Assembly: GCF_000354175.2 (NCBI RefSeq)
Contig: NC_022359.1
Coordinates: 960,001-992,000, forward strand
Source: Vibrio alginolyticus NBRC 15630 = ATCC 17749
GTDB taxonomy: Bacteria > Pseudomonadota > Gammaproteobacteria > Enterobacterales > Vibrionaceae
Direction: 5' to 3'
DNA length: 32,000 bases
The position numbers and the translations under genes are program-made. This document shows, piece after piece, positions 2 to 19,291 of the stretch. Positions within the stretch are counted from its first letter, which is position 1. Each line of letters begins with the position of its first letter. The notes under the pieces are model-generated. The model searched no databases. It saw only the letters and a list, made by a program, of their open reading frames with translations, and was not told the origin of the DNA.

Positions 2-3000
2 ACAATTGTGCCAACGGATTCATCTAAAGAGTTTGTCATGTCTCTTATCAAGAGTGACACAGATAAAATAGACATTTCTGAAGATGAAAAAACAACGTCA
101 TTGTATGTAAAAGCAACCGATATATATGGTTTTGAGTCTAGTTCTAACACGCACAAGGTTATTCTTGATCGTGATGGGCCAACATTAGGATTAAGTGGTT
201 TCAATGCGAATGACTACTACTTAGGTAACTATGTCTTTGACCTAACGGCGCTAGACCTAAATGCTAACGGTGATGTTTCAATTAATGGCGTAAATAGAGA
301 AAGCCTAGAGTATTGGACGTTTAGCGATCTGGAACCATTACCTGGCTCTCCTGGTACAAAAATCAATGAGGATCTCAAAGTGAGCCTTGGTGATTTAGGT
401 ACGGGTACACACAAGATTCGTTTAAAAGGGTCTGATGTTCGTGGCAACACAACCTTAACCAGTGATGAGCAAGATTTTACCGTCAAAGTGTACAACTCAA
501 TCCCGCAGGTGACGCTGGCGATGAGTTACACGGATGGAACGCCAATTACAAACAACACCATCTATCAAGATGGGAATATCGTACTTACGCTTGATATTGT
601 TGATGATAGTGGCGTTGATCGAATTGACTCAACGTATAGATTCTCTGGAGAGCAAAACGGGACTAACTTTACGTTCTCAGAAACCGCAGATGGCACTTGG
701 ACTGCAACGTTGCTTTCTACACAAATTGCCAAAGATGGTAATTATGAACTTGATATCAAAGTTTATAACAAAGTTCGTTACCTTGATGAAAAAGACCGAA
801 AGGTTGGAAAAGTAAACCAAACCTTTAGCGTACAGCGTGAAGGCGTGGTTCTAACAGTTGAAAGCCCGCTGGACTTCCAAAATTACTTATCTGATGGTGT
901 TCTTGATGTCACCTTTACTACAATGAGTGCGGTCAAAGCCAAAACGTTAGAGTGTTGGGTTCGTGAAGAATACAACTCTCTAGATGCGCCACCAACTAAT
1001 GAGCAACCAACTTCTGGTGTTATCAACGTATCGCAAGAACCTTACAGTTGTAGTGTCAATGTTGGGCAAAACATGACCAAAGCACCTGTCACTTTGATCA
1101 CTAAAACCTTGGGTACAAATGGGCGTGAAACGATCAACAAGTTCAATTTCTCGATGGTGGATATTGATGCACCGACAGTCGTGGATGGTAACTCATACAG
1201 TTTTAAAGGAAGTGATGTTTGGTTTGATGAAGCTTTGAAGAAGAAGATGCTCACATTTGAGCTCTCTTTTAATGATGCTTTATCAGGCGTGAATACCGAA
1301 AGTTCAGATGAATATCCAAAGTTGGTTCGTAATCTTGGCAACAAAGCTTATACACCAACGACTTGTGCCAAAGGTGTTGGAAATATCAAGTGTACGTATT
1401 CTGAATCCTATGCCGATATTATTGATGGCCTGAGTACAACTCAAGAATACAAAATCAAGAACTTATCTGATTTAGCAGGAAACTTGACGCCAGAGCACGA
1501 TCTACTGCTTGAATTACCTAAAGGTTCGGTAGTCGTTGAAATTACTGATCCGGTTGGAAACACAACCATTAATGGTCAGCAGCTTGTCGCCAAGTTCAGA
1601 ATTAAGCTGTATGAAAACTCTAGACTAGACAATGTGATGGCCAGATTTGGAACGGAATCCTACAACTATAAAGATAATCCGGAGAAGTTTGCACAATTAG
1701 AGGTGTGTGCAGATGATCCAACCTACAAGTGTTCAACATTTACAAGTGAACTTCCTAGCGATGCGGATGGAAAAACGATCAGGACAACGATTACTGCAAC
1801 GGATGTGTGGTCGAGAGTCGGTGAAGCGACCGTTGATATTAAAGTTGACAACACACCTCCAAGTGTTGGCGATGAGATTATCGTAACTGAATCGCCAACA
1901 AATCCAGATAATGTTCGTTTTCGTTTCGACATAACGGACACTGGTAGCAGCCTGGCAAAAGTAAACTATTCGGTTTTAAACCCAAGCTATCAAGAAGAAA
2001 GAGTAGAGGATGGGAACGGTTCATCTACGTACTTTGAACTACCGAAATCTCAGTTAGAGGGGCGTGGTTCAATCACGGTTGATATCAAAGCGACAGATAG
2101 CGTCGGACTGTATTCTGATATCAGAAAAGTCATTGATATTAGTGTTCCTAAAGTCACAGTTGATTTCGATGGAATTACGAGTTTGCAGGGTGGGAAACTG
2201 TTTTTAACCAAGGCAAGCCAGCCGTTTACGGTATCTACGGTGGAAGGAGAAAGAGTGAAAGCTTCACAATATTCTGTGGAGCTTATTCCAAGCCTCGGTG
2301 ATTCCTTGCGTTACTCAGGTGATGTTATCTCATCTAGTGGTAATGGAATGATGAACTTTGCCGTCGATAACCAAGGGGCATATACCCTTAAGGTGACGGT
2401 GACGGACTCAGTTGGAAGAGAGAATACAAGCTTTGAATTACTAGGCAAAAGTTATGATGGACAAGTGATCGAGTCTATTGTTGATTATGACGCTCCAAGT
2501 ATTTCGGGCTTAAGTGCTAATCAAACCTCTAAGGTGCCGACAAACGATAAGTATCAACTAGAAATTAGTGCATACATTACAGATAAAAATTTAAATCTCG
2601 TCACGTCAAAAGCGGTGAGTGGTGGTAGCACAGTGGCTCCTCAAGCGATTACTGAGCCGACAACCGAAGCGGGGCCTTATGTCATAAGCTATTTGTTACC
2701 GAAAGGCGATCATACGATCACGGTGGCAGCAACAGACAAGGTGGATAACAAGAGTGAAAGTTCTATTGACGCGCATGTGGAAGCGGCAACCGTTCCCGGG
2801 CTAAGTATCTCTACCGCCTCAAGCGCCCCTCTTTTTGGAGGCGAAGAGATTACGCTTGCGTTTAACTTTACAGAAGAAGTTACGAACTTTGATATCTCAG
2901 ATGTCCATCTTGTCGCTAGTGATAACGGCGCAACAGGAACGTTAAAGCAAGATACGTGGTCCACTTCAGACAACGTTACGTGGACGGTTAATTACATCAG

Positions 3001-6000
3001 TCCAGAAAAGCAAGATAAAAACATAACAATACAGGTAGAGGACGATAGCTACCAAAGTACCAACACCATTCCTGGAAAAGGAAGCAGCTTAAGTATCGCG
3101 GTTGAAGGAACCTTACCAAAACTAACCAATGTGACATTTAACCCCGAGCATCAGAGTGCGGGTCAAAGCGTGAATGTATCGCTTGAGTTTGACAAAGAGA
3201 TCCAAGAGGCGACCGCTACGCTTGGCGGCAATCGCATTAGTTCTCTGTCAGCAACGGCAGATAAAAAGGTCTGGGTTGGTGATGTACAAGTTCCGAGCAC
3301 CGCGCTGTTAAGTGTCGACTTGGTTGTTAGTCAGTTTAAAGATTTGACTGGCAACATAGGTGAGGATAACACCGCTCACGAATTGCCAATCACGCCAACC
3401 TTAGCTATTACGCCAGTGGGCAGTGTGGATGAAACGCATGCCGCCACGCTACAATTCGAAGGTACGTCGACACGTTTTGACGGCCAGTCCCTGCGTCTTG
3501 AAGTGGAAGCCCAAGGCAGCGCGACGGTACTAAAAAGCAGCAGCGCGACAGTACAAGCCGGTGGCACTTGGACCAGTGACGCGATTGATATGAGTCATCA
3601 AACCAATGGCACTTATACTGTGATGGTGACGGGGATGAACTCGGCGGGGATTGAAGTGAGTGAAAGCCAGAGCTTTACACTCGCGCAGTCTCTGCCAACG
3701 CTGACTAACGCGACGTTTAAGCCTGAGCACCAAGCCATCGGCCAACGCGTGACGGTGACGCTGGAATTCGATAAAGATCTGCAATCCGCCGCAGCGGAGT
3801 TAGGTGGTGCGACGATCACTTCATTAGTGGCAACCGCGGACCCAAGTGTTTGGACTGGTGATGTGGTGGTACCAAGCACGTCAGAGCTGAGTGTGGGGTT
3901 GCTTGTTCGTGACTACCAAGACTTCTCAGGGAATACCGGTAGCCAGAACACGGCTTACTCCATGCCGATCACGCCGACCTTAGCCATCACGCCAGTGGGT
4001 AATGTGGATGAAGCGCATGCCGCCACGCTACAATTTGAAGGTACGTCGACACGTTTTGATGGTCAGTCCCTGCGTCTTGAAGTGAAAGCCCAAGGCGGCG
4101 CGACGGTATTGAAAAGCAGCAGCGCAACGGTACAAGCCGGTGGCACTTGGACCAGTGACGCGATTGATATGAGTCATCAAACCAATGGCACTTACATCGT
4201 GATGGTGACGGGGACGAACTCAGCGGGCATTGAAGTGAGTGAAAGTCAGAGCTTTACACTGGCGCAGTCTTTGCCAACGCTGACTAACGTGACGTTTACG
4301 CCTGAGCACCAAGCCATCGGCCAAAGCGTGACGGTGACGCTGGAATTCGATAAAGATCTGCAATCCGCCGCAGCGGAGTTAGGTGGCACGACGATCACTT
4401 CATTAGTGGCAACCGCGGACCCAAGTGTTTGGACTGGTGATGTGGTGGTACCAAGCACGTCGGAGATCAATGTGGCGTTGCTTGTTCGTGACTACCAAGA
4501 CTTCTCAGGGAATACCGGTAGCCAGAACACGGCTTACTCCATGCCGATCACACCAACCTTAGCTATTACGCCAGTGGGCAGTGTGGATGAAACGCATGCC
4601 ACCACGCTACAATTCGAAGGTACGTCGACACGTTTTGACGGTCAGTCCCTGCGTCTTGAAGTGAAAGCCCAAGGCAGCGAGACGGTACTAAAAAGCAGCA
4701 GTGCAACGGTACAAGCCGGTGGCACTTGGATCAGTGACGCAATGGATATGAGTCACCAAACCAATGGCACTTATACCGTGATTGTGACAGGGACGAACTC
4801 AGCTGGCATTGAAGTGAGTGAAAGCCAGAGCTTTACACTGGCGCAGTCTCTGCCAACGCTGACTAACGTGACGTTTACGCCTGAGCACCAAGCCATCGGC
4901 CAAAGCGTGACGGTGACGCTGGAATTCGATAAAGATCTGCAATCCGCCGCAGCGGAGTTAGGTGGTACCACGATCACTTCATTAGTGGCAACCGCGGACC
5001 CAAGCGTTTGGACTGGTGATGTGATGGTACCAAGCACGTCGGAGCTCAAATTGGGGTTGCTTGTTCGTGACTACCAAGACTTCTCAGGGAATACCGGAAG
5101 TCAGAGCACGGCTTACTCCATGCCGATCACGCCGACCTTAGCTATTACGCCAGTGGGCAATGTGGATGAAACGCATGCCGCCACACTACAATTCGAAGGC
5201 ACGTCGACACGTTTTGACGGTCAGTCCCTGCGTCTTGAAGTGAAAGCCCAAGGCAGCGCGACGGTACTAAAAAGCAGCAGTGCAACGGTACAAGCTGGTG
5301 GCACTTGGGTCAGTGACGCAATGGATATGAGTCACCAAACCAATGGCACTTATACTGTGATGGTGACGGGGACGAACTCAGCGGGCATTGAAGTGAGTGA
5401 AAGCCAGAGCTTTACACTGGCGCAGTCTCTGCCAACGCTGACTAACGTGACGTTTACGCCTGAGCACCAAGCCATCGGCCAAAGCGTGACGGTAACGCTG
5501 GAATTCGATAAAGATCTGCAATCCGTCGCAGCGGAGTTAGGTGGCACGACGATCACTTCATTAGTGGCAACCGCGGACCCAAGTGTTTGGACTGGTGATG
5601 TGGTGGTACCAAGCACGTCAGAGCTCAATGTGGGGTTGCTTGTTCGTGACTACCAAGACTTATCAGGGAATACCGGTAGCCAGAACACGGCTTACTCCAT
5701 GCCAATTACACCGACAATACACCTAGACGTTATCAACGATGTTACTGGAGTGGAAAGCGTGACAGTAAGTGGTAGCAGTGAACGATTTGAAGATGGTGAG
5801 TTCATAGATATCAAAGTAGTCGACGCTGATGGTACAGAAGCCACAGGCATGGCAACCGTGCTTTCAGACTCATGGACAACTGATTTAGATCTTTCAGGAC
5901 TGAAGGAGGGGGTAGTGACGATTTATGTAAATGGTACCAACAAGCTTTCCGCCTCTGCCGAAGAGGCTCAAGCAACATTTAACTATGATCGTTTCGCAAG

Positions 6001-6070
6001 TACAGCCTCCTTAGGTGCTGTTTACAACCGATATTTTAGTGATAACAAAACTTTAAAAAATGCGGCATAA
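2..6070 (+). CDS. Giant repetitive Ig-like-domain surface protein (adhesin-like), 3' portion; 5' end lies outside the window
   Basis: The reading frame is open from the window edge, with no in-frame stop from nt 2, so the GTG at nt 8 in the ORF track is probably internal. The product exceeds 2000 aa and is rich in Thr/Ser/Val/Asp. It is built of roughly 95-100-aa modules with junctions such as DRDGPTL, DIDAPTV, DNTPPSV and DYDAPSI, typical of bacterial Ig-like/cadherin-like adhesin repeats. It contains near-identical 193-aa tandem units. A strong hairpin terminator follows the stop. Confidence 0.75.
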   Translation, partial: TIVPTDSSKEFVMSLIKSDTDKIDISEDEKTTSLYVKATDIYGFESSSNTHKVILDRDGPTLGLSGFNANDYYLGNYVFDLTALDLNANGDVSINGVNRESLEYWTFSDLEPLPGSPGTKINEDLKVSLGDLGTGTHKIRLKGSDVRGNTTLTSDEQDFTVKVYNSIPQVTLAMSYTDGTPITNNTIYQDGNIVLTLDIVDDSGVDRIDSTYRFSGEQNGTNFTFSETADGTWTATLLSTQIAKDGNYELDIKVYNKVRYLDEKDRKVGKVNQTFSVQREGVVLTVESPLDFQNYLSDGVLDVTFTTMSAVKAKTLECWVREEYNSLDAPPTNEQPTSGVINVSQEPYSCSVNVGQNMTKAPVTLITKTLGTNGRETINKFNFSMVDIDAPTVVDGNSYSFKGSDVWFDEALKKKMLTFELSFNDALSGVNTESSDEYPKLVRNLGNKAYTPTTCAKGVGNIKCTYSESYADIIDGLSTTQEYKIKNLSDLAGNLTPEHDLLLELPKGSVVVEITDPVGNTTINGQQLVAKFRIKLYENSRLDNVMARFGTESYNYKDNPEKFAQLEVCADDPTYKCSTFTSELPSDADGKTIRTTITATDVWSRVGEATVDIKVDNTPPSVGDEIIVTESPTNPDNVRFRFDITDTGSSLAKVNYSVLNPSYQEERVEDGNGSSTYFELPKSQLEGRGSITVDIKATDSVGLYSDIRKVIDISVPKVTVDFDGITSLQGGKLFLTKASQPFTVSTVEGERVKASQYSVELIPSLGDSLRYSGDVISSSGNGMMNFAVDNQGAYTLKVTVTDSVGRENTSFELLGKSYDGQVIESIVDYDAPSISGLSANQTSKVPTNDKYQLEISAYITDKNLNLVTSKAVSGGSTVAPQAITEPTTEAGPYVISYLLPKGDHTITVAATDKVDNKSESSIDAHVEAATVPGLSISTASSAPLFGGEEITLAFNFTEEVTNFDISDVHLVASDNGATGTLKQDTWSTSDNVTWTVNYISPEKQDKNITIQVEDDSYQSTNTIPGKGSSLSIAVEGTLPKLTNVTFNPEHQSAGQSVNVSLEFDKEIQEATATLGGNRISSLSATADKKVWVGDVQVPSTALLSVDLVVSQFKDLTGNIGEDNTAHELPITPTLAITPVGSVDETHAATLQFEGTSTRFDGQSLRLEVEAQGSATVLKSSSATVQAGGTWTSDAIDMSHQTNGTYTVMVTGMNSAGIEVSESQSFTLAQSLPTLTNATFKPEHQAIGQRVTVTLEFDKDLQSAAAELGGATITSLVATADPSVWTGDVVVPSTSELSVGLLVRDYQDFSGNTGSQNTAYSMPITPTLAITPVGNVDEAHAATLQFEGTSTRFDGQSLRLEVKAQGGATVLKSSSATVQAGGTWTSDAIDMSHQTNGTYIVMVTGTNSAGIEVSESQSFTLAQSLPTLTNVTFTPEHQAIGQSVTVTLEFDKDLQSAAAELGGTTITSLVATADPSVWTGDVVVPSTSEINVALLVRDYQDFSGNTGSQNTAYSMPITPTLAITPVGSVDETHATTLQFEGTSTRFDGQSLRLEVKAQGSETVLKSSSATVQAGGTWISDAMDMSHQTNGTYTVIVTGTNSAGIEVSESQSFTLAQSLPTLTNVTFTPEHQAIGQSVTVTLEFDKDLQSAAAELGGTTITSLVATADPSVWTGDVMVPSTSELKLGLLVRDYQDFSGNTGSQSTAYSMPITPTLAITPVGNVDETHAATLQFEGTSTRFDGQSLRLEVKAQGSATVLKSSSATVQAGGTWVSDAMDMSHQTNGTYTVMVTGTNSAGIEVSESQSFTLAQSLPTLTNVTFTPEHQAIGQSVTVTLEFDKDLQSVAAELGGTTITSLVATADPSVWTGDVVVPSTSELNVGLLVRDYQDLSGNTGSQNTAYSMPITPTIHLDVINDVTGVESVTVSGSSERFEDGEFIDIKVVDADGTEATGMATVLSDSWTTDLDLSGLKEGVVTIYVNGTNKLSASAEEAQATFNYDRFASTASLGAVYNRYFSDNKTLKNAA
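3113..5716 (+). repeat. In-frame tandem repeat array, 579-bp (193-codon) unit, about 4.5 copies, inside the adhesin gene
   Basis: Unit starts (LP[KT]LTN codons) fall at 3113, 3692, 4271, 4850 and 5429, exactly 579 bp apart. The last unit is half-length and homology ends after PITPT at about 5716. Units 2-5 differ by only about a dozen residues per 193 aa. Unit 1 diverges in its first half. Antisense ORFs at 4246-4470, 4771-5049 and 5350-5628 recur with the same 579-bp period. Confidence 0.95.
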
Positions 6071-6072
6071 AT

Positions 6073-6100
6073 AAAGCGAGCGTTTAGCTCGCTTTATTTC
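6073..6100 (+). terminator. Rho-independent terminator of the adhesin gene
   Basis: Perfect 9-bp stem AAAGCGAGC (6073-6081) / GCTCGCTTT (6087-6095) with loop GTTTA, followed by ATTTCTTT. It starts 3 nt after the TAA stop. Confidence 0.8.
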
Positions 6101-6277
6101 TTTGGGACTTTTTGTGATATTTATCAAAATAATTGCCTTTATTGATAAGTTACTCGAATTAATGAATCGTCTTAATACAAGGCTGAATAACTATAATAAC
6201 TAGGCCAATGTTGCTTTTAGGTGTGTATGACGTGATTGTGATGGTCGCTCGGCAGGTGCTGTGGTGAATGTGTCGCG

Positions 6278-6305
6278 TTGAAAATCTTTTTAAATATTAT
6301 ATATT
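6278..6305 (+). promoter_or_regulatory. Candidate sigma70 promoter TTGAAA-N16-TATATT
   Basis: TTGAAA at 6278-6283 and TATATT at 6300-6305 with a 16-nt AT-rich spacer. Motif match only. Confidence 0.3.
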
Positions 6306-6316
6306 TACGATCGTTT

Positions 6317-6333
6317 CTATACTCTGAGTATAG
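6317..6333. promoter_or_regulatory. Perfect 17-bp palindrome CTATACTC-T-GAGTATAG (operator-like)
   Basis: The 8-nt arms are exact reverse complements separated by one base. It sits about 12 nt downstream of the candidate -10. The 1-nt spacer is too short for a full RNA hairpin, which favours a dimeric protein-binding site. Confidence 0.35.
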
Positions 6334-6424
6334 TGTTCTGCATGAGGTCGATGGGTAATACCTCACCTCTTTAACTCGCGATGAAGCAAATTTAATCCTA
6401 GCAAGCTTCAGAGCAGTTACTTTT

Positions 6425-6455
6425 GTGAGTGCGTAATGCGCTCACCTTTTTATTT
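6425..6455 (+). terminator. Orphan Rho-independent terminator within the intergenic spacer
   Basis: 8-bp stem GTGAGTGC (6425-6432) / GCGCTCAC (6438-6445), including one G-U pair, with loop GTAAT. It is followed by C-TTTTT-A-TTT. No annotated ORF ends here. Confidence 0.6.
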
Positions 6456-6628
6456 AAACTTCCTCAGTAACAGTCAATTTGTTGTTTGTTGCTGAGGAGG
6501 GCACCTCATAAACTTCTGAATTTCCTCGTGCTTACCTGAAGCGCACGTTACTACGATTTTTGTTAACTTCAGTCCATAAATTAAATTTTTTTAGATAGTA
6601 AGATTTTACCATTTTGACAGAGTGGGTG

Positions 6629-6742
6629 ATGTTACTGGCTTTTGTTGTGGTCAAATCGCATGTTTTGATAGCAAAAGTCACCATTTTTTTGGTGTTTTTG
6701 ATTTCGGGCGATTTTTCTATCTCGTTGAAAATAAATGGCTAA
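6629..6742 (+). CDS. Possible 37-codon hydrophobic small ORF (MLLAFVVVKSHVLIAKVTIFLVFLISGDFSISLKING)
   Basis: ATG at 6629 to TAA at 6740-6742, read directly from the sequence. Two hydrophobic stretches. Weak Shine-Dalgarno (GGGTG). It is below the ORF-track length cut-off and may be spurious. Confidence 0.12.
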   Translation: MLLAFVVVKSHVLIAKVTIFLVFLISGDFSISLKING

Positions 6743-6753
6743 GTAAGTAGGAT
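6725..6753 (+). promoter_or_regulatory. Candidate sigma70 promoter TTGAAA-N17-TAGGAT upstream of the three-gene operon
   Basis: TTGAAA at 6725-6730 and TAGGAT at 6748-6753, about 85 nt upstream of the ATG at 6838. Motif match only. Confidence 0.25.
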
Positions 6754-6837
6754 ACGCAGACCAAATCGTACTTGTAAGCCTTATCAGCTTAATTGTCACC
6801 GCAGCCATATTTACGATGTTGGTTGTGGAGAATTCAA

Positions 6838-8589
6838 ATGCATTTAGTTTGCAAATTTATACCTAGCTCGAAGCTATCCTCCAACGAGCTATCTTATGTT
6901 CTTACACCGGACGAGTGTATAGGGCAGCTTTCGCGTTTGCGAAATTCAGATGACATCCTTAGAAACCTCCCTAAAGAGTTGGCGCAAAAGATTTCCATCT
7001 CTGCCAAAAAAACGACCAGCGCATTGCTAGCTGCTATAAGAATCGAATTGGGAAAAGGCAATTGGGTGTCATTATCTACCGTTGCTCGTCGGTCGCCATT
7101 GACGGACTCTCAGCTGCAAAGCTTCCCTAGACTTAAATCACTCGTTGACTCTGTATCTGCTTCGAATGAAAGCAAAGCTTTTAAAGCAGGATACAAGCAG
7201 GTTACCGACGATGTTGCTTTAGTTCGTAGTTACACGCATGTCCCCTCTGAGCCAAGTCTAGATCAAAAAATCGTTGTCGAGTTTGCAGGGCAGTGGTCTA
7301 GCAACGCGGCATGTTTGATGTTGGGAAAAACCGAAGCTCAAAAAGAAAAAGTGACTGTAGGCAAGGCTGATACAGAAAACAAACACCGCAGCCTCGCGAT
7401 ATTTAAAGATCTCGAAGCTGAGGGCAAAACGCTCTATATCAAGATCCCTTGCACTGACCAGCCTCAGCCAATTTTGCTTAAACTCGCCGAAAACCTGCAA
7501 CCCGTTGGTAAAGATACTCAGATGGATGAGTGGGATAACGTGTTGGTGCCTGTGGTTCCGCTGCACTTCCCTAGTAGCGATAAATCAGATGAAGCTGCAG
7601 AAGTGTTTAAATCAGGCTACGTGTATGTTGTTTGGAACAATAAAATTTGGCGCGAAGTGGCAATTACGGAAAATGGTTACTTTTCAGATACGGACATTAA
7701 TAGTGTTCGTGAAGGCTCTAGACCCAAAAGGCACGCCGATATCTATATGACCAATCCTGAAACAGGCGGTGTTTTCGCTTATGAGCCTTTCCAAATCGTG
7801 CAGAACGGCAAGGTGGTAAGTGAAGGCTCTTTGAATGGCTCTGGAGAGGCTCGAGTGTTCAACTTAGTTGAGGAAGAAGTTGAGATAGTCATGACAGGCT
7901 ATGAACCACAAATCAAAGAAAAGATTGAAACAAATTTGAGCCCTATTAATGCTTCTAGCCCAGTGGAGCGGAGCGCGCAAGGTTACCCTCTCCCGCATAT
8001 ATGGCTTCCTTACAAGATTAAAGGTGAGCCTCAAGAAGTATATTTGGCTTATAACAGTAAACGATTGAGCGAGAGTGAACTATCTGAACTAGAAAGTGAT
8101 CCCGGAACCAAGGCCATAAAAGTCACTGATCTTAACCATTATAGCAGTGAGAAAAGCTTTAAAATTGGAGACGGTTCTGTTCGTCTGCTCTCAGTATTAC
8201 CAAGTGCTGCGACCTCAAAACCTGAAAAATACGCAATGTTACGAAGCCAGCTAAATAAAAATGTAGCGGTCGTGTATTTACTTAAATCTGTCGAGATAGT
8301 TTTCGAATATCCGGGCTATACGACGCTGGACGAGTCAGATGATTACTTTGAGTTAAGGCAAAGCGATGGTGATTGGTCGCAGCGAGTGTGCTTGCGCCAA
8401 TGTATAAAAAAAGAGAATGGTTCTAGGTTGATTCGTTTTACTGGTTGGCCTGCAGAGGTTAAAGAAGTGGATCTTCTCCGTGGTTATCAGGGCAATAGTC
8501 ATCACGGAAGAGATAATAAAACGGTCATTTTTGCTCAAACACCCATTGCGGATTTACTGGCTTACAAGAAAAAAGATCAGCCAAGTTAA
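6838..8589 (+). CDS. Hypothetical 583-aa protein with MIX-like motifs; candidate T6SS cargo effector
   Basis: I prefer the ATG at 6838 (GGAG 7 nt upstream) over the TTG at 6793 used in the track. No signal peptide or TM segment. Residues encoded at about 7549-7632 read PVVPLH...(14 aa)...FKSGYVYVV followed by VVWNNKIW. This matches the published MIX pattern shhPhR / hRxGhhYhh / hhYSxxxW[ST] with conservative substitutions. It lies next to a T6SS cluster. Confidence 0.55.
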   Translation: MHLVCKFIPSSKLSSNELSYVLTPDECIGQLSRLRNSDDILRNLPKELAQKISISAKKTTSALLAAIRIELGKGNWVSLSTVARRSPLTDSQLQSFPRLKSLVDSVSASNESKAFKAGYKQVTDDVALVRSYTHVPSEPSLDQKIVVEFAGQWSSNAACLMLGKTEAQKEKVTVGKADTENKHRSLAIFKDLEAEGKTLYIKIPCTDQPQPILLKLAENLQPVGKDTQMDEWDNVLVPVVPLHFPSSDKSDEAAEVFKSGYVYVVWNNKIWREVAITENGYFSDTDINSVREGSRPKRHADIYMTNPETGGVFAYEPFQIVQNGKVVSEGSLNGSGEARVFNLVEEEVEIVMTGYEPQIKEKIETNLSPINASSPVERSAQGYPLPHIWLPYKIKGEPQEVYLAYNSKRLSESELSELESDPGTKAIKVTDLNHYSSEKSFKIGDGSVRLLSVLPSAATSKPEKYAMLRSQLNKNVAVVYLLKSVEIVFEYPGYTTLDESDDYFELRQSDGDWSQRVCLRQCIKKENGSRLIRFTGWPAEVKEVDLLRGYQGNSHHGRDNKTVIFAQTPIADLLAYKKKDQPS

Positions 8590-8661
8590 CAAAACAACTT
8601 ATTCGGGTTGCGTTGTCACATTATTAAACGCGATCGAGAAAGATAACGAAGAGAATATAAG

Positions 8662-9789
8662 ATGAACCTACGTCATACATTATGCTTGATTACCTTAGCG
8701 GTCTTATCTGGTTGTAATCAAGAATCAGCCAAGGAACCAGAACAACACGCGCCAAAACCTCAGACGGTTCAAGACCGAATCGCAGAAAAAAATGCTCAAC
8801 AGTGGGAAGATGGTCGTGTTTATATTACAGAAAACAATTACGTTATTTATGACAAAGAGACGGGTAAACCTAAACACTTTATTTTTAAAGCTAAAGAATG
8901 GCCACGTGAAGATCTCACCAATGAAAGCTCTTATGATTTACCACGTGTAGTGTTTCGTTGGGATAACGCCCGAAATGAAGCGAAAGACCACTATGATCAA
9001 AGGGATAAAGTGTGGAGTATCAAAACGGATGGGACGGACTTGCGTCTGGTCGCAGATGAGTTTGTTGGCAAAGTTCGTCTAATGCGTGTCTCTCCAAATA
9101 ATCGCTACTTGGCTTTGGCCTATTCGGCCTCAGAAGGGATGTTTAAAGTAATTAAAGATCTTAAGACGGGTGAGTATATTGAACTAGGTCGTTCACGTGG
9201 CTACCCAGAGTTTCTATGGGCAGAAGACAGCAGCTATCTTTACTACGTAGACAAGTTTAAAGACTGGAAGTACACCTTAGCGACAGGCGACAAACAGCAA
9301 GTAGACACAGAGTTTAATGAGTATTCCGTGATTCAAAAAGGAAAAAGATACGTACTAAACGACTTTGGCGTTGCAGTTTATGATGAGGCAAAAGACGAAT
9401 TTCTCTTTAGCACGGGAATTAATCCTGATGAACAAAATCTGGGTGATTATAAGTTTAACAAACGTAGTATTAGTCCAGACGGTAAGTACGCTTGGGGTGA
9501 AAGTAGGAAGTTTCGTTATCTAATTGATATCGAGCAGGATTCATTTCAACAAGAAGAAATTGTACCGCGAGCGGTAGGTAAACTGCGCTATTTTGAAATT
9601 TTGAGTAAAGATGCGAATTATGCTCGGGATGGAGCGGCGCGGGCCATCCTCAGTAAACTAAAAGAAAATAAAGAATTTGGTTCTTATTTAAAATGGGAGC
9701 AAATAGGGACGGGCCATAGTGCCAGTAACTCTTCTCTTTACAACGCCTTTGCCAACAATGGTGGTTTTGTTAAAGGGGATGAACTGTGA
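8662..9789 (+). CDS. Lipoprotein with TolB/PD40-like beta-propeller repeats; candidate immunity protein
   Basis: The N-terminus MNLRHTLCLITLAVLSGCNQ is a signal peptide with lipobox LSGC, and the +2 residue is Asn. Repeats such as DGTDLRLV...VSPNNRYLAL and ISPDGKYAW resemble PD40/TolB-type blades. The gene sits between two leaderless large proteins, and its stop overlaps the next start (GTGA). Confidence 0.6.
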   Translation: MNLRHTLCLITLAVLSGCNQESAKEPEQHAPKPQTVQDRIAEKNAQQWEDGRVYITENNYVIYDKETGKPKHFIFKAKEWPREDLTNESSYDLPRVVFRWDNARNEAKDHYDQRDKVWSIKTDGTDLRLVADEFVGKVRLMRVSPNNRYLALAYSASEGMFKVIKDLKTGEYIELGRSRGYPEFLWAEDSSYLYYVDKFKDWKYTLATGDKQQVDTEFNEYSVIQKGKRYVLNDFGVAVYDEAKDEFLFSTGINPDEQNLGDYKFNKRSISPDGKYAWGESRKFRYLIDIEQDSFQQEEIVPRAVGKLRYFEILSKDANYARDGAARAILSKLKENKEFGSYLKWEQIGTGHSASNSSLYNAFANNGGFVKGDEL

Positions 9790-12700
9790 GCACTCATGAT
9801 ACCAGTAACGCGATACCTTTGTGTGCAAATTACTATTTGTTTGGTGTTTATTATGAGGGGGAATTTAACTCTCAAACTAAAACAACTGAATTCCCATCTT
9901 GGCATTCAGAGGAAAGCTTGGTAAGAAAACAAATCGCTAATATTCGCCCTTTAGCGAAAGTGCCGATGCTTAACGTCACTGATAGCGATAGCCCTAAGCT
10001 TTGGGCTACCGACCATAAATTTAAGTTATGTTCACTGGGTAACGGAAAGCCCGATCAATATGGGGCTTTTGAGGTCCTGACACCAGAGCACACAATTCAT
10101 GCGTTAGGTAGGGATCTACCCAAAGAGGGTGAGCAGACCTTCACTTTCCGCTTTCCGCCCTTGCCTTTAATAGCTTCACTTTCTGAGTTAAACCCCAAAG
10201 AGTTAGCTACAAAAGTTGCAGAGTTGAGTAGCCAGTTGGAAAACAGCGAAGCAAAACTCACCTTGACAGAGGTCAGCATTGAACAATTGGCTAAGCCTTA
10301 CGAACCAGCTGCGAACGGGGGGCTCAGCGAAGAACAGGCAGAATATAATAAGTGGTATGAAGATGTAAGTGAATCGGGAGAGACACTAAAAGGCTTCGTT
10401 TTACCTGTTGTGGCGAGTTGCGCGGTGGTTTTTTCTGATCAAGGCTATGAAAGTGCGACGGTTACTTTGCAAAAGTTTGACTCAACCAAAGAAGGTGGGG
10501 AATACAAAACGATAGGCTCTTCAGTACAAGCGGCATTACCTGAAGATGAGCTTTCAGAAGAAAATGCTAAGCAATATCCATGCGCGATGTTTCACGTTGA
10601 TCCTGCTGATTTTAAAGAAGGCTTATATAGTATCCGTGTCGAATTTATTCCAAGCCAGATGAAAAATGGTGTTCCACAGTTCATTAAAGACGCTCATATT
10701 CAGCAATTTTCTGAAGGCTTAGATACAGTCTATACTTACGAGCTACGTGAACAGATTACCTTTTCTTCAAGCACTCCGTTAGGGAAATTTGCCATTGTCA
10801 GTGGCGATATGATCTCCCTTGAGGAATCCTTGATTTATCAATACCCTCAGTACTTTGGAAATATGAAACATTACCTTCACGGTAATGTACAAGGTGTAAC
10901 AGCCGATACGCCAGCTTCAAGGAGTATTGCGTTACTCAAGAATATCCGAGATGTGTCTGCTCAGCTAGGAGCAGGGCTGCTGAGCGGTAGCTTGCAAGAC
11001 ACTTTAGACCGTGATGGCCGCCAAGCGGTGTTTAATAACGTCTCGAAACTGTATTGGGATGCAGTTAAGTCCGAGATGCCGCCTGCGATGAAAGCGGCGG
11101 GCGAATTGTATTACGGTATTTACAGTACGAAAGAAGCGCTTGATAAGTTGCAGGAACTCCACACTCCAACTATCGCGGGTGTTGGTTGGAAGGCGCTATT
11201 TCACGATAAGGTTTTTAACACCAATGAAGCTCGGTCAAGCGCACTTGCACTTTCTTTAGAATCACGTCTGGGTAACCGACGTGTGGTTGCCGGGCGAGTT
11301 GCGGAAGCTTGGCTTTCTGGTGGTAAAACCGTTGGTTTTAATGGCTTCGGAACGGGATTGACAGCACTTAGTTTGTATAAAAAAGCTAAACAGCTGGTTA
11401 ATCAAAATAAAAAGGTTGATAAAGCAGAGCAAGGAACAGAAGAAGTTACAAAAGACTACCTTGCTCAAATTCCAGTTTGGAAGACAGCTAACCATATCCA
11501 GGAAGAAAAACTAGAACAGGCTTTAAAAGATGCGCGTGATCAATCTGGCAATCAGATTGACGCCATTCTCGTAAATAGCTCTAGAGGCGCAGGAATAAAA
11601 ATAGAATTTGCCTTTAACTCGCGTGAAAAAGAGTTAAAGGAGCATGCACCTATATTTAAACAGCTTGCTGCTTCTCTTGCCAACGTTTTAGAGAATGAGC
11701 CAAACCTTAGAGTAGAGATAGAAGGGCATGCTTGCCAAGTCGGTACCGAGAAAGCAAATATGCAGGTCTCGGCAGAGCGCGCAGAATATGCGAAAAAACT
11801 GCTCATGAAGGAGTTCCCTGTTTTTGAAGGTCGTGTTTCGGTAGCCGCTTTTGGTGAAAGTAAACCTGTCTATGTTCCCAAACAAGGTGAAAAAGTCGAC
11901 CGCAATAACCTTAATCTAAGACAAAACCGTCGGGTTGTAATCCGTATTTACCTGCAATCCCTGAACATATTCTTTCATCCCAGTCGCTATGGCTCGCATG
12001 CAATGGAACGCTCTAGGCTTGCTCTAGAAGCTGAGATGGTTGCGCAAGATAAAGCAGAAGTCGCACTGCGAATGGCGATTTTTGACAGTGTCGTTGACGT
12101 CGCTTCCTATATTCCTGCTATAGCTCCTGCGGCAAGAGGGTTTATGCTTGCCATAGAGGGGTCAAAGACAGCAATATCTGCGGTGAAAGTGATTGATAGT
12201 TTAATGTTGGACTCCTTCCTAGAAGAGTTAAAGCAAAGCCATGAGGTTGTCAGTGAGCTTGAAAGGCTGGCAAAAATACATATCGAGTTACTTAACGATT
12301 TGCGACGCAGTAAGGTAGATGTAGGTATTGAATGTAGGTCTTATCAGGAACTCATTACTCACCTTGAGAGCGAAGAAGTTCGTAAGGAGGTGTTAAAACG
12401 CTACCAACTACGAGCGCTTGCTATTAATGGCTTAGTGTTATTACTCGCTGACCTAGGATCTCAAACCAAACGGAATTCTAATATCTCGTTTAGGTTTTTG
12501 GTTGAGCGTTACAAGGTGAAGGAATACATTGAGAACTACATTTTGAGCGATGATTGGTCTGTACATACGATCAAAGGAAACACCTTAGCGGCTAACTGGA
12601 AGAACCGTTGTGATAACGAGTACTACACCGAATTATCGACAAAGATGCCACAAGGTGCGCAGCATTGGCCTGCTCCAATAACAACTAATAGCAAAGTTTC

Positions 12701-14531
12701 TCATCTCTCTATAACCGAAAACAGGGATAGCTTTAAAGCGTCAGGTGCATTTAATCAAATCTTCCCGATACAAACCATGTTGTTTGAACACCCAAATGAA
12801 ACGATGTTTGATAACTTTACCGAGTCATTTAACCCGCAGGGAAGTGAGTTAAAGAAAGATGAAATCGGCTATTGTCGAATACTTGTTCAGTCAGCTCGTT
12901 ATACTGAAAGTGATGAACCAGAATGGATGTCATATGATAGTTGGATTCAGCAATCTAGCAACAGTCGCCTAGGTCCATACGATAAAGTGAAAGTGCAGTT
13001 GATACTTAAAAAAGAACACAAGTATGCGAAGCCAGTTACGATTGGCTACGATCGCGTTGACGGGCTCGAAAATATTAAAGGCCCAGCTTTCAGTGACTGG
13101 ATGCTGCCAATGAAGGTTAGTGACTTCAAAACTGATCCTGATGGGCGAATAAGTGCTTTTTACAAGCAACAGGGGATTGATGACGGCGCTACGTTGATTG
13201 CTATTGAGCATATTCCCTCATTCCGCTTCGGTGATGTGATGATCGACGGTATGAAACCAATGACCTCTAAAGCAAAGCTAATGTTCTCTGATGCAATGTT
13301 CAGTATGGCAGTTTCCGGAGCAGCGATATCGGGTCAGCCAAGCGACTATTTTGCAGAAGCGGATTCCTTTAAGCGCTATGTAAAAGGCGGAGGCTTCCAA
13401 AATATGCGTTACTGCTTGGGAATTAGAACGAATCAAGGGCAACATAGTTTTTACTTACCACAAGAGTACAGTCTGGGGCAGAAGTTTGATGATGCTGAAG
13501 ATGAGTTGCAGATTGGCGCTTTAAGTACAGAAACTAGACTGGTTTTGCTTGATACCTACTTGGGAGAGCAGCAACTGCGTCTACGTGAACAGGACCTTAT
13601 GGTAGAGAGCTTTACCTTAATGGCAGGTGAGGGAGACAAAAATACCATCCCTATACTTCATGGCATTAAACAGCAATTGGTGGCTATAGACACCAAAGCG
13701 TCTGGTTTGAACTTTTTCAGTGAAAGAAAGTGGTACCAATCGGCTGATAATATCTGGCGTGATGGTTTCTCATGGGGAAACAAAAAGAAAGACGATCCTG
13801 CCAGTATTTATGTACTGATTTTGGGTGAAAGTCATGAAAAAGCACTTTATGAACGTTTGGGTATGCCGTGGGAAGCAGTGAATATGTGCATTCAACTGGC
13901 GCTCGACGGAAATGATGGCAAGCCAGTTAAAGGTCCTCTTTACTTCACCGATATGTATCATATTGGTGAGTTTGCCTATAAAAACGAAGAATGGATGTTT
14001 ACTGAATCTATTTCCGAAAACCATCGAGAACAAGTTGATGCCATGAGTGAGTTTATAGGTGAAGCTGTAGGTAGTCTCACTAAAGAGAATGAACTATCTA
14101 AGAGCAAAAACTATACGATGTACTGCATGAGGTTTAACTTGGAATATGTTGCACCAACGGGAGTTAGGTTAAAAGGTCTAAGACCGTTTGGTGGTGTAAT
14201 TGGTGGTAAAGCGAACTTGGAGCTTTCGGTTGCTCATCTAAAACAAGTCGGATTAAATGGAGCTGATGACTATGATATTGGTCGTGATGCTGTAATTTCT
14301 ATTCCTTCTTTAAATGCGGATAGTGCTTTGGCTGGTAATTTCTTTAGTGATATGCCTTGGTTAATTGAGAAAGAGTCGACAGAGGAAGGCGTAGACAAGT
14401 CTGCGGCTGAAACTTGGAAGCAGTATAACGAATCTCAACGCAAGAAATGGTTGAAAGATTGGATTGAGAAACAACCTGCGGTAACTCAAGCACCCAAGCC
14501 CTTGGAAAAGTCACTTGATAACCCTTCCTAG
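9786..14531 (+). CDS. 1581-aa leaderless protein with internal OmpA-like peptidoglycan-binding domain; candidate secreted co-effector or effector
   Basis: GTG start at 9786 with AAGGGG upstream and a 4-nt overlap with the upstream stop; the next in-frame Met is far downstream. No signal peptide. Residues ~600-722 (nt ~11580-11955) read LRVEIEGHACQVGTEKANMQVSAERAEYAKKLL...AAFGESKPV...NRRVVIRIY, which fits the OmpA_C-like pattern. The rest has no family I recognise. Confidence 0.6.
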   Translation: MSTHDTSNAIPLCANYYLFGVYYEGEFNSQTKTTEFPSWHSEESLVRKQIANIRPLAKVPMLNVTDSDSPKLWATDHKFKLCSLGNGKPDQYGAFEVLTPEHTIHALGRDLPKEGEQTFTFRFPPLPLIASLSELNPKELATKVAELSSQLENSEAKLTLTEVSIEQLAKPYEPAANGGLSEEQAEYNKWYEDVSESGETLKGFVLPVVASCAVVFSDQGYESATVTLQKFDSTKEGGEYKTIGSSVQAALPEDELSEENAKQYPCAMFHVDPADFKEGLYSIRVEFIPSQMKNGVPQFIKDAHIQQFSEGLDTVYTYELREQITFSSSTPLGKFAIVSGDMISLEESLIYQYPQYFGNMKHYLHGNVQGVTADTPASRSIALLKNIRDVSAQLGAGLLSGSLQDTLDRDGRQAVFNNVSKLYWDAVKSEMPPAMKAAGELYYGIYSTKEALDKLQELHTPTIAGVGWKALFHDKVFNTNEARSSALALSLESRLGNRRVVAGRVAEAWLSGGKTVGFNGFGTGLTALSLYKKAKQLVNQNKKVDKAEQGTEEVTKDYLAQIPVWKTANHIQEEKLEQALKDARDQSGNQIDAILVNSSRGAGIKIEFAFNSREKELKEHAPIFKQLAASLANVLENEPNLRVEIEGHACQVGTEKANMQVSAERAEYAKKLLMKEFPVFEGRVSVAAFGESKPVYVPKQGEKVDRNNLNLRQNRRVVIRIYLQSLNIFFHPSRYGSHAMERSRLALEAEMVAQDKAEVALRMAIFDSVVDVASYIPAIAPAARGFMLAIEGSKTAISAVKVIDSLMLDSFLEELKQSHEVVSELERLAKIHIELLNDLRRSKVDVGIECRSYQELITHLESEEVRKEVLKRYQLRALAINGLVLLLADLGSQTKRNSNISFRFLVERYKVKEYIENYILSDDWSVHTIKGNTLAANWKNRCDNEYYTELSTKMPQGAQHWPAPITTNSKVSHLSITENRDSFKASGAFNQIFPIQTMLFEHPNETMFDNFTESFNPQGSELKKDEIGYCRILVQSARYTESDEPEWMSYDSWIQQSSNSRLGPYDKVKVQLILKKEHKYAKPVTIGYDRVDGLENIKGPAFSDWMLPMKVSDFKTDPDGRISAFYKQQGIDDGATLIAIEHIPSFRFGDVMIDGMKPMTSKAKLMFSDAMFSMAVSGAAISGQPSDYFAEADSFKRYVKGGGFQNMRYCLGIRTNQGQHSFYLPQEYSLGQKFDDAEDELQIGALSTETRLVLLDTYLGEQQLRLREQDLMVESFTLMAGEGDKNTIPILHGIKQQLVAIDTKASGLNFFSERKWYQSADNIWRDGFSWGNKKKDDPASIYVLILGESHEKALYERLGMPWEAVNMCIQLALDGNDGKPVKGPLYFTDMYHIGEFAYKNEEWMFTESISENHREQVDAMSEFIGEAVGSLTKENELSKSKNYTMYCMRFNLEYVAPTGVRLKGLRPFGGVIGGKANLELSVAHLKQVGLNGADDYDIGRDAVISIPSLNADSALAGNFFSDMPWLIEKESTEEGVDKSAAETWKQYNESQRKKWLKDWIEKQPAVTQAPKPLEKSLDNPS

Positions 14532-14534
14532 GTG

Positions 14535-14566
14535 CAAAAAAACCGCCTTCGGGCGGTTTTCTTTTC
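14535..14566. terminator. Bidirectional Rho-independent terminator between convergent genes
   Basis: AAAAAAACCGCC-TTCG-GGCGGTTTTCTTTTC: a GC stem with a TTCG tetraloop, an A-run on one side and a T-run on the other. It lies between the stop at 14531 (+) and the stop at 14610 (-). Confidence 0.85.
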
Positions 14567-14609
14567 TTATCACTTCATACTGAATTTAGAAGTTTCTTTT
14601 TAACCCCCA

Positions 14610-16241
14610 TCAACCAGCTGCAGAAATGTCGTATTTCTTCATCTTGTGGTTGAGTGTGCTCATTGGCAGCGCCAATTGCTCAGCGGCCTTCTTGGTGTGC
14701 CAATTACACGCATTTAAGCAATCGATGATCACTGTACGCTCGTATTGGCTGACAACGTCCTTAAGGCTCTTTGAAACGTCTTCTAAATCCGCTTGTGCTT
14801 GCTGCTCGTAAGCAGGTTGCTCTGGGGTAGGTGAAGCTGCTTTCATGTCGATACTTGGTACATCTTCTGGGATTTGTTCGCCAAACTCAATGTGAGTAAT
14901 GGTTTCAAAATCGGACAGTAGCACCGAGCGCTCGATGATGTTCTTAAGCTCACGCACGTTCCCTGGGTATTGGTAGGCAAGCAGCTGTTTACGTACGTTG
15001 GCACTTAACCCTGGCGCTTGCGGCAGACCTAGCGTGTTGGTTGTGTGTTGCACGAAATGTTCGGCAAGGGGAATAATGTCTGACTTGCGAGCTCTCAATG
15101 GTGGTAATGTAATAGGGAACACATTCAAACGATAGAACAAATCGGCACGGAATCCGCCATCTTTGATTTGCTGCATAAGATTACAGTGGGTTGCGGCGAT
15201 AACGCGAACGTCCACCTCAATCTCTTTGCTGGTACCGATAGGGCGAACTTTGCGTTCTTGTAGTACACGCAGTAACTTTGCCTGCAGTAGCATTGGCATA
15301 TCGCCAATTTCATCTAGGAAAAGCGTGCCGCCGTTGGCTGCTTCAAACAAACCGACTTTGTCTTTGTCTGCGCCCGTAAATGAACCTTTCTTATGCCCAA
15401 AAAGCTCAGATTCCAATAACTGCTCTGGAATAGCCGCACAGTTCTGAACGATCAAAGGCTGTTCTGAACGATTAGAGTTTTCGTGAATGTATTTCGCGAT
15501 CACTTCTTTACCAGCGCCCGTTTCACCACGCAACAGAACGTCGACAGGAAGAGATAGCACCTTATCAAGACGATTCAAGACATTGAGCATTTCTTCGCTC
15601 TCTGCAATAGGACCTTGATAGGCTTTCTGGGTACGTTTTTTGAGCTGAGTGTTCTCGCGCACTAGGGCTTGATTGTCGGCATTGAGATTTTTTATTACTT
15701 GCCCGTATTGCTCTAACCACACAGCTTGGCGAATATTACTCGCGGCCATACGACAAAACTCAGTCAATGCAGCTTCATTGTCGATAACATTTAAATCGAG
15801 TAAGACTAACAGTCCAATGGTTTTGCTTTCGCTATCAATCAAAGGCCAAGCCAATAAGTTCTCGCTTTTTAATCCCAGTGTCTGCTCAGTTTGATAGATG
15901 CTTTCGCAGTCATAGCCGTTGTACTTATACAACTCGTTAATCAACACCACTTCACCATTACGAATGGCAAAGTTAAATGGGTCGTTCTCACTGGCTGAGT
16001 CTAACTGTAATGCTTCCCAAGGGTGGGAAACGATAGTTTTATCGTTATGGTGAGCGGTACTTGGAATCAACGCCTGCCCAGTCTGGTCCAAAACGTAAAT
16101 GATGCCGTGCTTTGCGAGGGTCATTTGTCTCGCAGCGGTCAACACAGCATCCAACGTTTGGGTAAGCTGGCTGCGATCAGCCAAAGACTGACTGATCGCA
16201 AGTAGGGCGTTACTAAGTTCGCTATGGTTAGCTGAACGCAT
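14610..16241 (-). CDS. Sigma54-dependent enhancer-binding transcriptional activator (GAF - AAA+ - Fis-type HTH), VasH-like T6SS regulator
   Basis: Walker A GETGAGKE, sigma54-contact loop GSFTGA, LFLDEIG Walker B region, a C-terminal HTH (AAEQLALPMSTLNHKMKKYDI) and an N-terminal GAF-like sensor region. Its start overlaps the clpV stop by 14 nt. Confidence 0.85.
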   Translation of the reverse strand: MRSANHSELSNALLAISQSLADRSQLTQTLDAVLTAARQMTLAKHGIIYVLDQTGQALIPSTAHHNDKTIVSHPWEALQLDSASENDPFNFAIRNGEVVLINELYKYNGYDCESIYQTEQTLGLKSENLLAWPLIDSESKTIGLLVLLDLNVIDNEAALTEFCRMAASNIRQAVWLEQYGQVIKNLNADNQALVRENTQLKKRTQKAYQGPIAESEEMLNVLNRLDKVLSLPVDVLLRGETGAGKEVIAKYIHENSNRSEQPLIVQNCAAIPEQLLESELFGHKKGSFTGADKDKVGLFEAANGGTLFLDEIGDMPMLLQAKLLRVLQERKVRPIGTSKEIEVDVRVIAATHCNLMQQIKDGGFRADLFYRLNVFPITLPPLRARKSDIIPLAEHFVQHTTNTLGLPQAPGLSANVRKQLLAYQYPGNVRELKNIIERSVLLSDFETITHIEFGEQIPEDVPSIDMKAASPTPEQPAYEQQAQADLEDVSKSLKDVVSQYERTVIIDCLNACNWHTKKAAEQLALPMSTLNHKMKKYDISAAG

Positions 16242-19274: not shown

Positions 19275-19291
19275 TTGGCACGGACTTTGAT
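19275..19291 (+). promoter_or_regulatory. Sigma54 (-24/-12) type promoter upstream of hcp
   Basis: TTGGCACG-GACT-TTGAT: a perfect -24 element TGGCAC (19276-19281), an exact 5-nt spacer, and a -12 element TTGA (consensus TTGC). It lies about 70 nt upstream of the hcp ATG, and a cognate bEBP is encoded 3 kb away. Confidence 0.6.

Follow-up and report, generated by a model that had tools for sequence, protein, structure and literature searches.

A probable binary effector module at the edge of the type VI secretion gene cluster of Vibrio alginolyticus, orthologous to vp1388-vp1389-vp1390 of Vibrio parahaemolyticus

What is the role of a three-gene operon that lies beside a type VI secretion system (T6SS) gene cluster in Vibrio alginolyticus NBRC 15630 (= ATCC 17749) and that encodes two large proteins with no recognisable export signal, one on either side of a lipoprotein? 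The operon is found in a stretch of 32,000 nucleotides of contig NC_022359.1 (positions 960,001 to 992,000), referred to here as the window; all coordinates are window coordinates. An earlier note on this DNA had proposed that the operon is a two-partner effector module with its own immunity protein. Our analysis leads us to conclude with high confidence that the locus is the 'binary effector module' of the V. alginolyticus T6SS1 and that it is orthologous to vp1388-vp1389-vp1390 in V. parahaemolyticus. The sequence comparisons, the assignment of orthology and the domain searches come from this analysis; what is said of secretion, binding, toxicity and immunity comes from the literature on the orthologues.

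The three open reading frames (ORFs) of the operon are all on the + strand. ORF1 (6838-8589) starts with an ATG that has a GGAG motif 9 nt upstream, and it encodes a protein of 583 amino acids; its longest frame opens at a TTG at 6793, and the publicly deposited form of the protein is the one with 583 amino acids. ORF2 (8662-9789, 375 amino acids) follows after a gap of 72 nt. ORF3 (9786-14531, 1581 amino acids) starts with a GTG that forms part of a GTGA overlap with ORF2. The recomputed coordinates agree with the gap, the overlap and the shared orientation that had been described in the earlier note.

All three proteins match public V. alginolyticus proteins exactly, and the clusters at 90% identity to which they belong include proteins of the same length from V. 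parahaemolyticus, V. diabolicus and V. antiquarius. ORF1 is 98.8% identical to the cluster member EAS76655.1 and ORF2 is 99.5% identical to EAS76654.1, both of which we take, from their accession series, to be proteins of V. alginolyticus strain 12G01. Identity to the V. parahaemolyticus proteins is 93.7% for ORF1, 97.9% for ORF2 and 97.8% for ORF3. Three V. parahaemolyticus contigs (L021-L023) carry genes for proteins of 583, 374 and 1580 amino acids, followed by a convergent sigma54-activator gene and the ClpV gene, in the same order as here. These contigs were obtained by exact protein look-up; the loci from our genome scan excluded the V. alginolyticus and V. parahaemolyticus reference loci. 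The link to the VP gene numbers is also drawn from matching lengths (VP1389 has 375 amino acids). That the locus might be the orthologue of vp1388-vp1390 had been raised as a possibility in the earlier note, and the levels of identity, the common gene order and the shared 90% clusters bear this out. In strain 12G01 the proteins Va01565 (MIX I), Va01560 (immunity) and Va01555 (OmpA_C) have been described as the homologues of VP1388, VP1389 and VP1390, respectively (Salomon et al., PLoS Pathog 2015, PMC4549250), and mass spectrometry placed both Va01565 and Va01555 in the VaT6SS1-dependent secretome (PMC4549250). The locus has the attributes by which the VP1388-VP1390 module is recognised at the sequence level, namely its layout, its orthology, the signal on the immunity protein and an OmpA_C toxin that lacks a Sec signal.

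The V. parahaemolyticus genes were given the name 'binary effector module' in a study that found them in 1,375 strains (Dar, Jana, Bosis, Salomon, EMBO Rep 2022, PMC8728615). VP1388 and VP1390 bind one another and co-precipitate with VgrG1, and each depends on the other for its secretion by T6SS1 (PMC8728615). Such mutual binding and mutual dependence among the orthologues support the two-partner arrangement that had been proposed for the V. alginolyticus operon. Prey cells divide more slowly, develop septal blebs that hold cytoplasmic green fluorescent protein (GFP), and then lyse (PMC8728615). The earlier note had supposed that ORF1 and ORF3 are both T6SS cargo that acts in the periplasm or envelope of the target: the first part of this stands, in that both orthologues are secreted by T6SS1, but the second part needs to be amended, since periplasm-targeted VP1388 is harmless in Escherichia coli and the toxin would be ORF3 alone.

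The distinction matters because an older interpretation has ORF1 as the toxin, ORF2 as its immunity protein and ORF3 as an unrelated secreted protein that happens to be co-regulated, making the locus a classical MIX effector/immunity pair. This was the view of 2014-2015, when Va01565 was paired as an effector with Va01560 as its immunity protein, while Va01555, for which no immunity gene was apparent, was left out of consideration (PMC4549250), and it draws on the MIX motifs in ORF1 and on the position of ORF2 directly after ORF1. It is hard to reconcile with the finding that, in the E. coli periplasm, it is VP1390 that is toxic while VP1388 is not, or with the binding of VP1389 to VP1390 (PMC8728615). 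Killing of a vp1389 mutant takes both vp1388 and vp1390, and it ends when vp1390 is deleted (PMC8728615). Immunity-plus-toxin pairs also occur in other genera where there is no ORF1 homologue (PMC8728615). In the 20 related Vibrionaceae loci that made up our comparison set (L001-L020), the immunity protein diverges with ORF3 as much as it does with the C-terminus of ORF1. Taken with the published data, this makes a simple pair of ORF1 and ORF2 very improbable.

In the binary module, ORF1 is predicted to be the MIX-clan-I co-effector (tether), the orthologue of VP1388 and Va01565. The MIX motifs have the forms shhPhR, hRxGhhYhh and hhF/YSxxxWS/T. ORF1 contains the core motifs VLVPVVP (residues 235-241) and FKSGYVYVV (residues 257-265) at 7540-7632 on the + strand, so the MIX-like motifs that had been noticed earlier are present, each with one substitution at the consensus arginine: this is a valine in the first motif, VLVPVV, and a lysine in the central one, FKSGYVYVV. 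Homologues from other species (class C alleles) have VLVPVR. The third motif has no clear match in ORF1, where an invariant HxWxPYK block comes after motif 2. The motif block is kept in all 15 of the aligned ORF1 homologues. Neither Pfam nor NCBIfam includes a MIX model, and the VP1388 homologues have been assigned to MIX I (PMC4549250). Searches of Pfam (even at E <= 10), NCBIfam and the PDB revealed no relative of ORF1 and no toxin domain in it, and there was no Pfam match to the DUF4123, DUF1795 or DUF2169 adaptor families.

The two halves of ORF1 have very different histories of conservation. Across the 20 loci, most alleles keep 75-100% identity in residues 1-240, with conservation that includes the MIX core extending to about residue 290, whereas in residues 241-583 the divergent alleles retain only 19-47%; in the same alleles identity is 19-38% for the immunity protein and 19-29% for the toxin. 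An insertion of about 77 amino acids (approximately residues 300-376), together with the C-terminal half, covaries with the immunity and toxin allele. The division of the protein into a constant and a variable half is not new, because a constant N-terminus and a variable C-terminus have already been published for VP1388 on the basis of structure classification, and the C-terminal domains of VP1388 were reported there as Ig-like repeats (PMC10734457).

These features set ORF1 apart from better-known T6SS components. Polymorphic MIX effectors such as VPA1263 and Va16152 resemble it in having the MIX core motifs and in depending on T6SS1 for their export, but in those proteins MIX is fused to a toxin domain, whereas here the toxin would be a separate protein encoded two genes downstream of the MIX protein. 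Since a toxin domain is missing from ORF1, the locus does not encode a fused MIX toxin of the classical kind. Adaptors and chaperones (DUF4123/Tap-Tec, DUF1795/Eag and DUF2169) likewise aid the loading of cargo onto the spike, and so do the RIX tethers, which are secreted (PMC10435454). Classical adaptors stay in the cell, however, while VP1388 leaves with its toxin; with a secreted orthologue, and with none of the DUF4123, DUF1795 and DUF2169 families matched by its sequence, ORF1 is not an adaptor of the classical kind.

ORF2 is predicted to be a periplasm-facing immunity lipoprotein, the orthologue of VP1389 and Va01560. Its N-terminus, MNLRHTLCLITLAVLSGC, includes the standard lipobox that the earlier note had called textbook: the sequence LSGC at residues 15-18 (8704-8715, + strand) stands behind MNLRH and a hydrophobic core, and lipidation would take place on Cys18, with which the mature protein would begin. 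In VP1389 residues 1-17 were predicted to be a signal peptide by SignalP and their deletion abolished immunity (PMC8728615). The proposal that ORF2 is a periplasm-facing immunity protein is thus in agreement with the behaviour of the orthologous module, where immunity needs vp1389 only, with its signal peptide included (PMC8728615).

The fold of ORF2 is less obvious from its own sequence than from that of its family. A Pfam search with ORF2 returned nothing above threshold, and PD40 was not matched. When a profile of 19 immunity homologues was compared with the PDB, it matched TolB propellers in four PDB families (E = 3e-6 to 7e-5); the best match was to the propeller of prolyl oligopeptidase (7e-7), and the propeller alignment covers only about 100 residues. 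Weak matches were obtained to the oligopeptidase B propeller and to SGL and other beta-propeller models (COPA/B, THOC3 and WDHD1). A PD40/TolB-type beta-propeller is tentatively predicted in ORF2.

Extra, orphan immunity genes are present in several of the related loci (L005, 13385-14569; L009, 17753-18973; L015, 8326-9567; L017, 4694-5914 and 6329-7570), and in L005 an N-terminal fragment of a truncated toxin is located between two immunity copies. Orphan immunity genes were also seen in the published survey of the module (PMC8728615). In the most divergent immunity alleles (L012, 11680-12918; L014; L016-L020) the lipobox is replaced by an N-terminal transmembrane anchor that has no cysteine.

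ORF3 is predicted to be a lytic toxin that acts in the periplasm, the orthologue of VP1390 and Va01555. An N-terminal hydrophobic segment was detected neither in ORF3 nor in ORF1 when export signals were looked for by hydropathy only (the maximum Kyte-Doolittle 19-residue window was 1.53 in ORF3 and 1.06 in ORF1, and it was not N-terminal in either), in agreement with the earlier observation that the large proteins have no Sec/Tat signal or N-terminal anchor. By hydropathy, ORF3 has no convincing transmembrane or pore-forming segment, and it has no lipobox. Its one recognisable domain is OmpA-like, at residues 610-707 (11613-11906, + strand; PF00691, E = 3e-17, 63.2 bits against a cut-off of 27.2). 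The presence of this domain had been predicted correctly, but the aspartate associated with peptidoglycan binding is replaced. Its position in the pocket is occupied by Cys650 (11733-11735), in the sequence GHACQVGT, where OprF, Pal and Acinetobacter baumannii OmpA have GHTD or GHAD. An alignment of 17 ORF3 homologues, with identity down to 25%, has cysteine or glycine at the equivalent position in all 17, while the partner residue, Arg665, is invariant; a repeat homologue search with the family alignment found 21 of the 23 earlier proteins again, together with two new fragments. In A. baumannii OmpA, Asp271 and Arg286 (15 residues further on) are cited as binding diaminopimelate (PMC5974059). 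With the pocket aspartate replaced by cysteine or glycine, canonical binding to peptidoglycan is not to be assumed, and the ORF3 domain may not bind it in that way.

An OmpA-like domain encoded within a T6SS gene cluster could also be taken as the mark of a structural accessory, a protein of the TagL/TagN/TagP type that would anchor the machine to peptidoglycan and would not be a toxin at all. Domains of this kind fix several T6SS membrane complexes to the wall, and the ORF3 profile matches the OmpA-like structure 7bba, described as a 'putative type VI secretion protein' (E = 0.004), although matches linked to TssL are insignificant (E = 0.8 and 2.2). In ORF3, however, neither a transmembrane segment nor a lipobox nor a signal peptide is found, and the lack of a membrane anchor argues that it is not a wall anchor. 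Its orthologues are released to the medium in a T6SS-dependent manner, and deletion of vp1390 spares both the secretion of VgrG1 and the killing of E. coli. The ORF3 family also diverges quickly and in step with the immunity gene, as a toxin would rather than a structural protein, and the canonical peptidoglycan-binding aspartate is absent from it. A structural role for ORF3 is scarcely credible in the light of these data.

No catalytic toxin motif was found in either of the large proteins by profile searches or, for ORF3, by fold searches, in agreement with what had been noted from the sequence. Outside the OmpA-like domain, searches of Pfam, NCBIfam and the PDB with ORF3 gave nothing significant, and the family profile matched only OmpA-like domains among PDB sequences. 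AlphaFold2 models of ORF3 have a mean predicted local distance difference test (pLDDT) score of 56.6 for residues 1-605 and of 65.0 for residues 706-1581, and they consist of several moderately confident beta-sandwich domains together with long helical stretches of low confidence (pLDDT <50). A Foldseek search of these models against the PDB gave no match with an E of 0.001 or less; what it returned were Ig- or arrestin-like beta-sandwiches of a generic kind. The models contain no fold that can be recognised as that of an enzyme, and their low-confidence regions could hide one. In the alignment of the toxin family, no stretch of invariant columns is longer than GDMISLEESLIYQYP, at residues 340-354 (10803-10847, + strand), in which G340, D341, M342, I343, L345, E346, E347, L349, Q352 and P354 (GDMISLEESLxxQxP) are the same in all 17 homologues. 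This block, which falls in a low-confidence part of the AlphaFold2 model, could be a putative catalytic site or a binding interface; the other invariant residues are scattered. Reviews up to late 2025 leave the toxin domain unassigned and give the activity as 'cell lysis' (PMC12724144, PMC9765294). Overall, the hidden Markov model and structure-based searches that the earlier note had proposed found OmpA in ORF3 but no Pfam PD40 in ORF2, and they left MIX identified by motif only. The toxin gene of the V. diabolicus reference is divided between two ORFs, of 1311 and 295 amino acids, and there may be a frameshift.

The lack of a catalytic fold across 1581 residues leaves room for a non-enzymatic mode of action that would be compatible with the binary module. 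ORF3 could be a mimic of Pal, using its OmpA-like domain to disturb the Tol-Pal system or the processing of the septal wall, with the TolB-like ORF2 binding that domain as TolB binds Pal. The slowed division, septal blebbing and lysis of prey cells resemble tol-pal defects, and would fit with such a mechanism. The family profile of ORF2 leads to TolB, and the OmpA-like domain of ORF3 matches the Pal chains of the same TolB-Pal structures (2hqs, 2w8b and 4r40; E = 3e-7 to 2e-5). This likeness is at the level of domain families only, as judged from sequences and profiles: ORF2 is without the N-terminal domain of TolB, and ORF3 is ten times the size of Pal and is without the pocket aspartate. Both PD40 propellers and OmpA-like domains belong to very widespread families, the alignments are short (about 100 residues of ORF2), and the best matches are to prolyl oligopeptidase and OprF rather than to TolB and Pal. 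Blebs that hold cytoplasmic GFP point to a breach in the wall and not just to blebbing of the outer membrane, while some 1450 residues of ORF3 are unexplained by the proposal and include helical regions (pLDDT <50) that could conceal an enzyme. Our literature search found no paper that connects VP1390 with Tol-Pal. We consider mimicry of Pal, which the two domain resemblances suggest weakly, to be unlikely as an account of killing.

The binary module also provides a setting in which to consider how the operon is transcribed. An A+T-rich spacer of 767 bp lies 5' of the operon (6071-6837, + strand); the preceding gene ends at 6070 and has terminator-like hairpins within the spacer, at 6078-6094 and 6425-6445. 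The spacer and its promoter-like motifs had been reported earlier and both are present, with sigma70-like hexamers at 6278-6305 and 6725-6753, but promoter-like sites are fewer here than chance would predict (7 observed against 16 expected from shuffled sequence), and because they are rarer than in shuffled sequence the hexamers carry no weight alone as promoter evidence. A scan of the 767-bp spacer for sigma54 -24/-12 elements gave no match, and an Rfam scan of the whole window, the spacer included, returned no families. The promoter of vp1388-1390 in V. parahaemolyticus is of the -10/-35 type and is bound and repressed by OpaR (PMC5650642), which fits with the missing sigma54 element in the V. 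alginolyticus spacer. At the other end of the operon there is a bidirectional intrinsic terminator (14539-14560, both strands; AAAACCGCCTTCGGGCGGTTTT), with a perfect 9-bp stem, a run of A before it and a run of T after it. It begins eight bases past the stop codon of ORF3, inside the 78-bp gap to a convergent sigma54-activator gene, and its folding energy stands well apart from that of shuffled sequences (z = -3.6). Because it has the A-run on one side and the T-run on the other, and lies between convergent genes, the predicted hairpin can stop transcription from either side and so serve both ORF3 and the sigma54-activator gene; a terminator common to the two had been proposed, and the hairpin is in keeping with this.

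These observations suggest a course of events in which the operon would be transcribed from the 767-bp spacer and transcription would stop at the shared terminator. ORF1 and ORF3 would form a complex in the attacking cell, be loaded onto the VgrG1 spike and be fired, with each protein being required for the secretion of the other. The N-terminal part of ORF1 (about residues 1-290, with the MIX core) probably docks on T6SS1 components that are themselves conserved, and the toxin, ORF3, is probably held by the variable C-terminal half; this division of labour is suggested by the 20-locus comparison because the N-terminus is constant while the C-terminus diverges with the toxin and the immunity protein. 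ORF3 would then act in the periplasm of the prey, where it would slow division, raise septal blebs and bring about lysis, while ORF2, as a lipid-anchored propeller facing the periplasm, would bind ORF3 and shield sibling cells.

The arrangement is widely conserved among the Vibrionaceae that were compared. The three-gene layout is present in 19 of the 20 loci, the exception being a short rearranged contig (L002), and it is found directly before the sigma54-activator and ClpV genes in 16; three further contigs end before that point. The DNA of the window is 96-99.7% identical to that of the V. parahaemolyticus contig L021 over approximately 7400-14600, whereas identity drops to 62-86% in the 5' end of ORF1 and the region upstream and is 91-95% in the adjacent T6SS core genes. 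The first 190 or so residues of ORF1 are only 85% identical to those in V. parahaemolyticus, and within the cassette there are patches of low identity at 9200-9500 and 9800-10100. Because the identity of the cassette exceeds that of its flanks and is interrupted by internal patches, the comparison suggests that the cassette was exchanged recently between species and that mosaic recombination followed.

The surrounding genes are those of a T6SS cluster, with a sigma54 activator (GAF/AAA+/helix-turn-helix), ClpV, Hcp, VgrG, a DUF2169 protein, a Ser/Thr kinase, TssA, TssB and TssC all being encoded nearby. The convergent sigma54-activator gene (14610-16241, - strand) is VP1391-like. A sigma54-type -24/-12 element with one mismatch (TGGCACGGACTTTGAT, 19276-19291) is located about 70 nt upstream of hcp, which fits with regulation by the adjoining sigma54 activator. 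Downstream of vgrG, a gene of the DUF2169 adaptor family (23912-24904) is flanked by unannotated ORFs (22612-23931 and 24897-25841), and these three genes may be another effector-loading set of the same cluster. On the other side of the module, a gene that continues beyond the 5' end of the window (8-6070) encodes more than 2020 amino acids, with at least four tandem Ig-like (immunoglobulin-like) repeats of 579 nt (193 amino acids) at 3161-5287; the GC content of the repeats, 0.51-0.53, is above that of their surroundings. Among the 20 related loci, 15 have a detectable Ig-repeat gene upstream of the module.

In its gene order, its protein lengths (583, 375 and 1580-1581 amino acids), its position at the edge of the T6SS1 cluster, its MIX I co-effector, its immunity protein with a signal peptide and its OmpA_C toxin, the locus is like the module of V. 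parahaemolyticus RIMD 2210633, with 94-98% identity to proteins from V. parahaemolyticus strains; the two differ in species, in the 5' end of ORF1 and in the upstream spacer, and in nothing of kind. The Va01565/Va01560/Va01555 genes of strain 12G01 are the same three genes in the same species, with a few amino-acid substitutions; Va01555 was not recognised as a toxin in 2015. Several points weigh against the assignment all the same. The orthology was established with V. parahaemolyticus strains other than RIMD 2210633 and with the published statement on 12G01. The functional steps that we propose are carried over from experiments on orthologues in other strains. Membership of ORF1 in the MIX clan is judged by motif alone, in a protein with Lys and Val at the consensus arginines of both motifs. 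Finally, no catalytic fold was found in ORF3, and a biochemical activity is absent from the literature too.

The module is already known, having been described in publications from 2014 to 2022 that include a secretome from the same species. The value of the V. alginolyticus locus is that of a positive control, in which a reading made from raw sequence rebuilt a mechanism that had needed several experimental papers. If ORF3, with its 1581 amino acids, were indeed a mimic of Pal, it would represent a new class of T6SS toxin, one whose killing would depend on imitating the structure of a system that tethers the envelope. The pocket that has lost its aspartate and the TolB-like immunity protein offer testable ideas about the action of VP1390.

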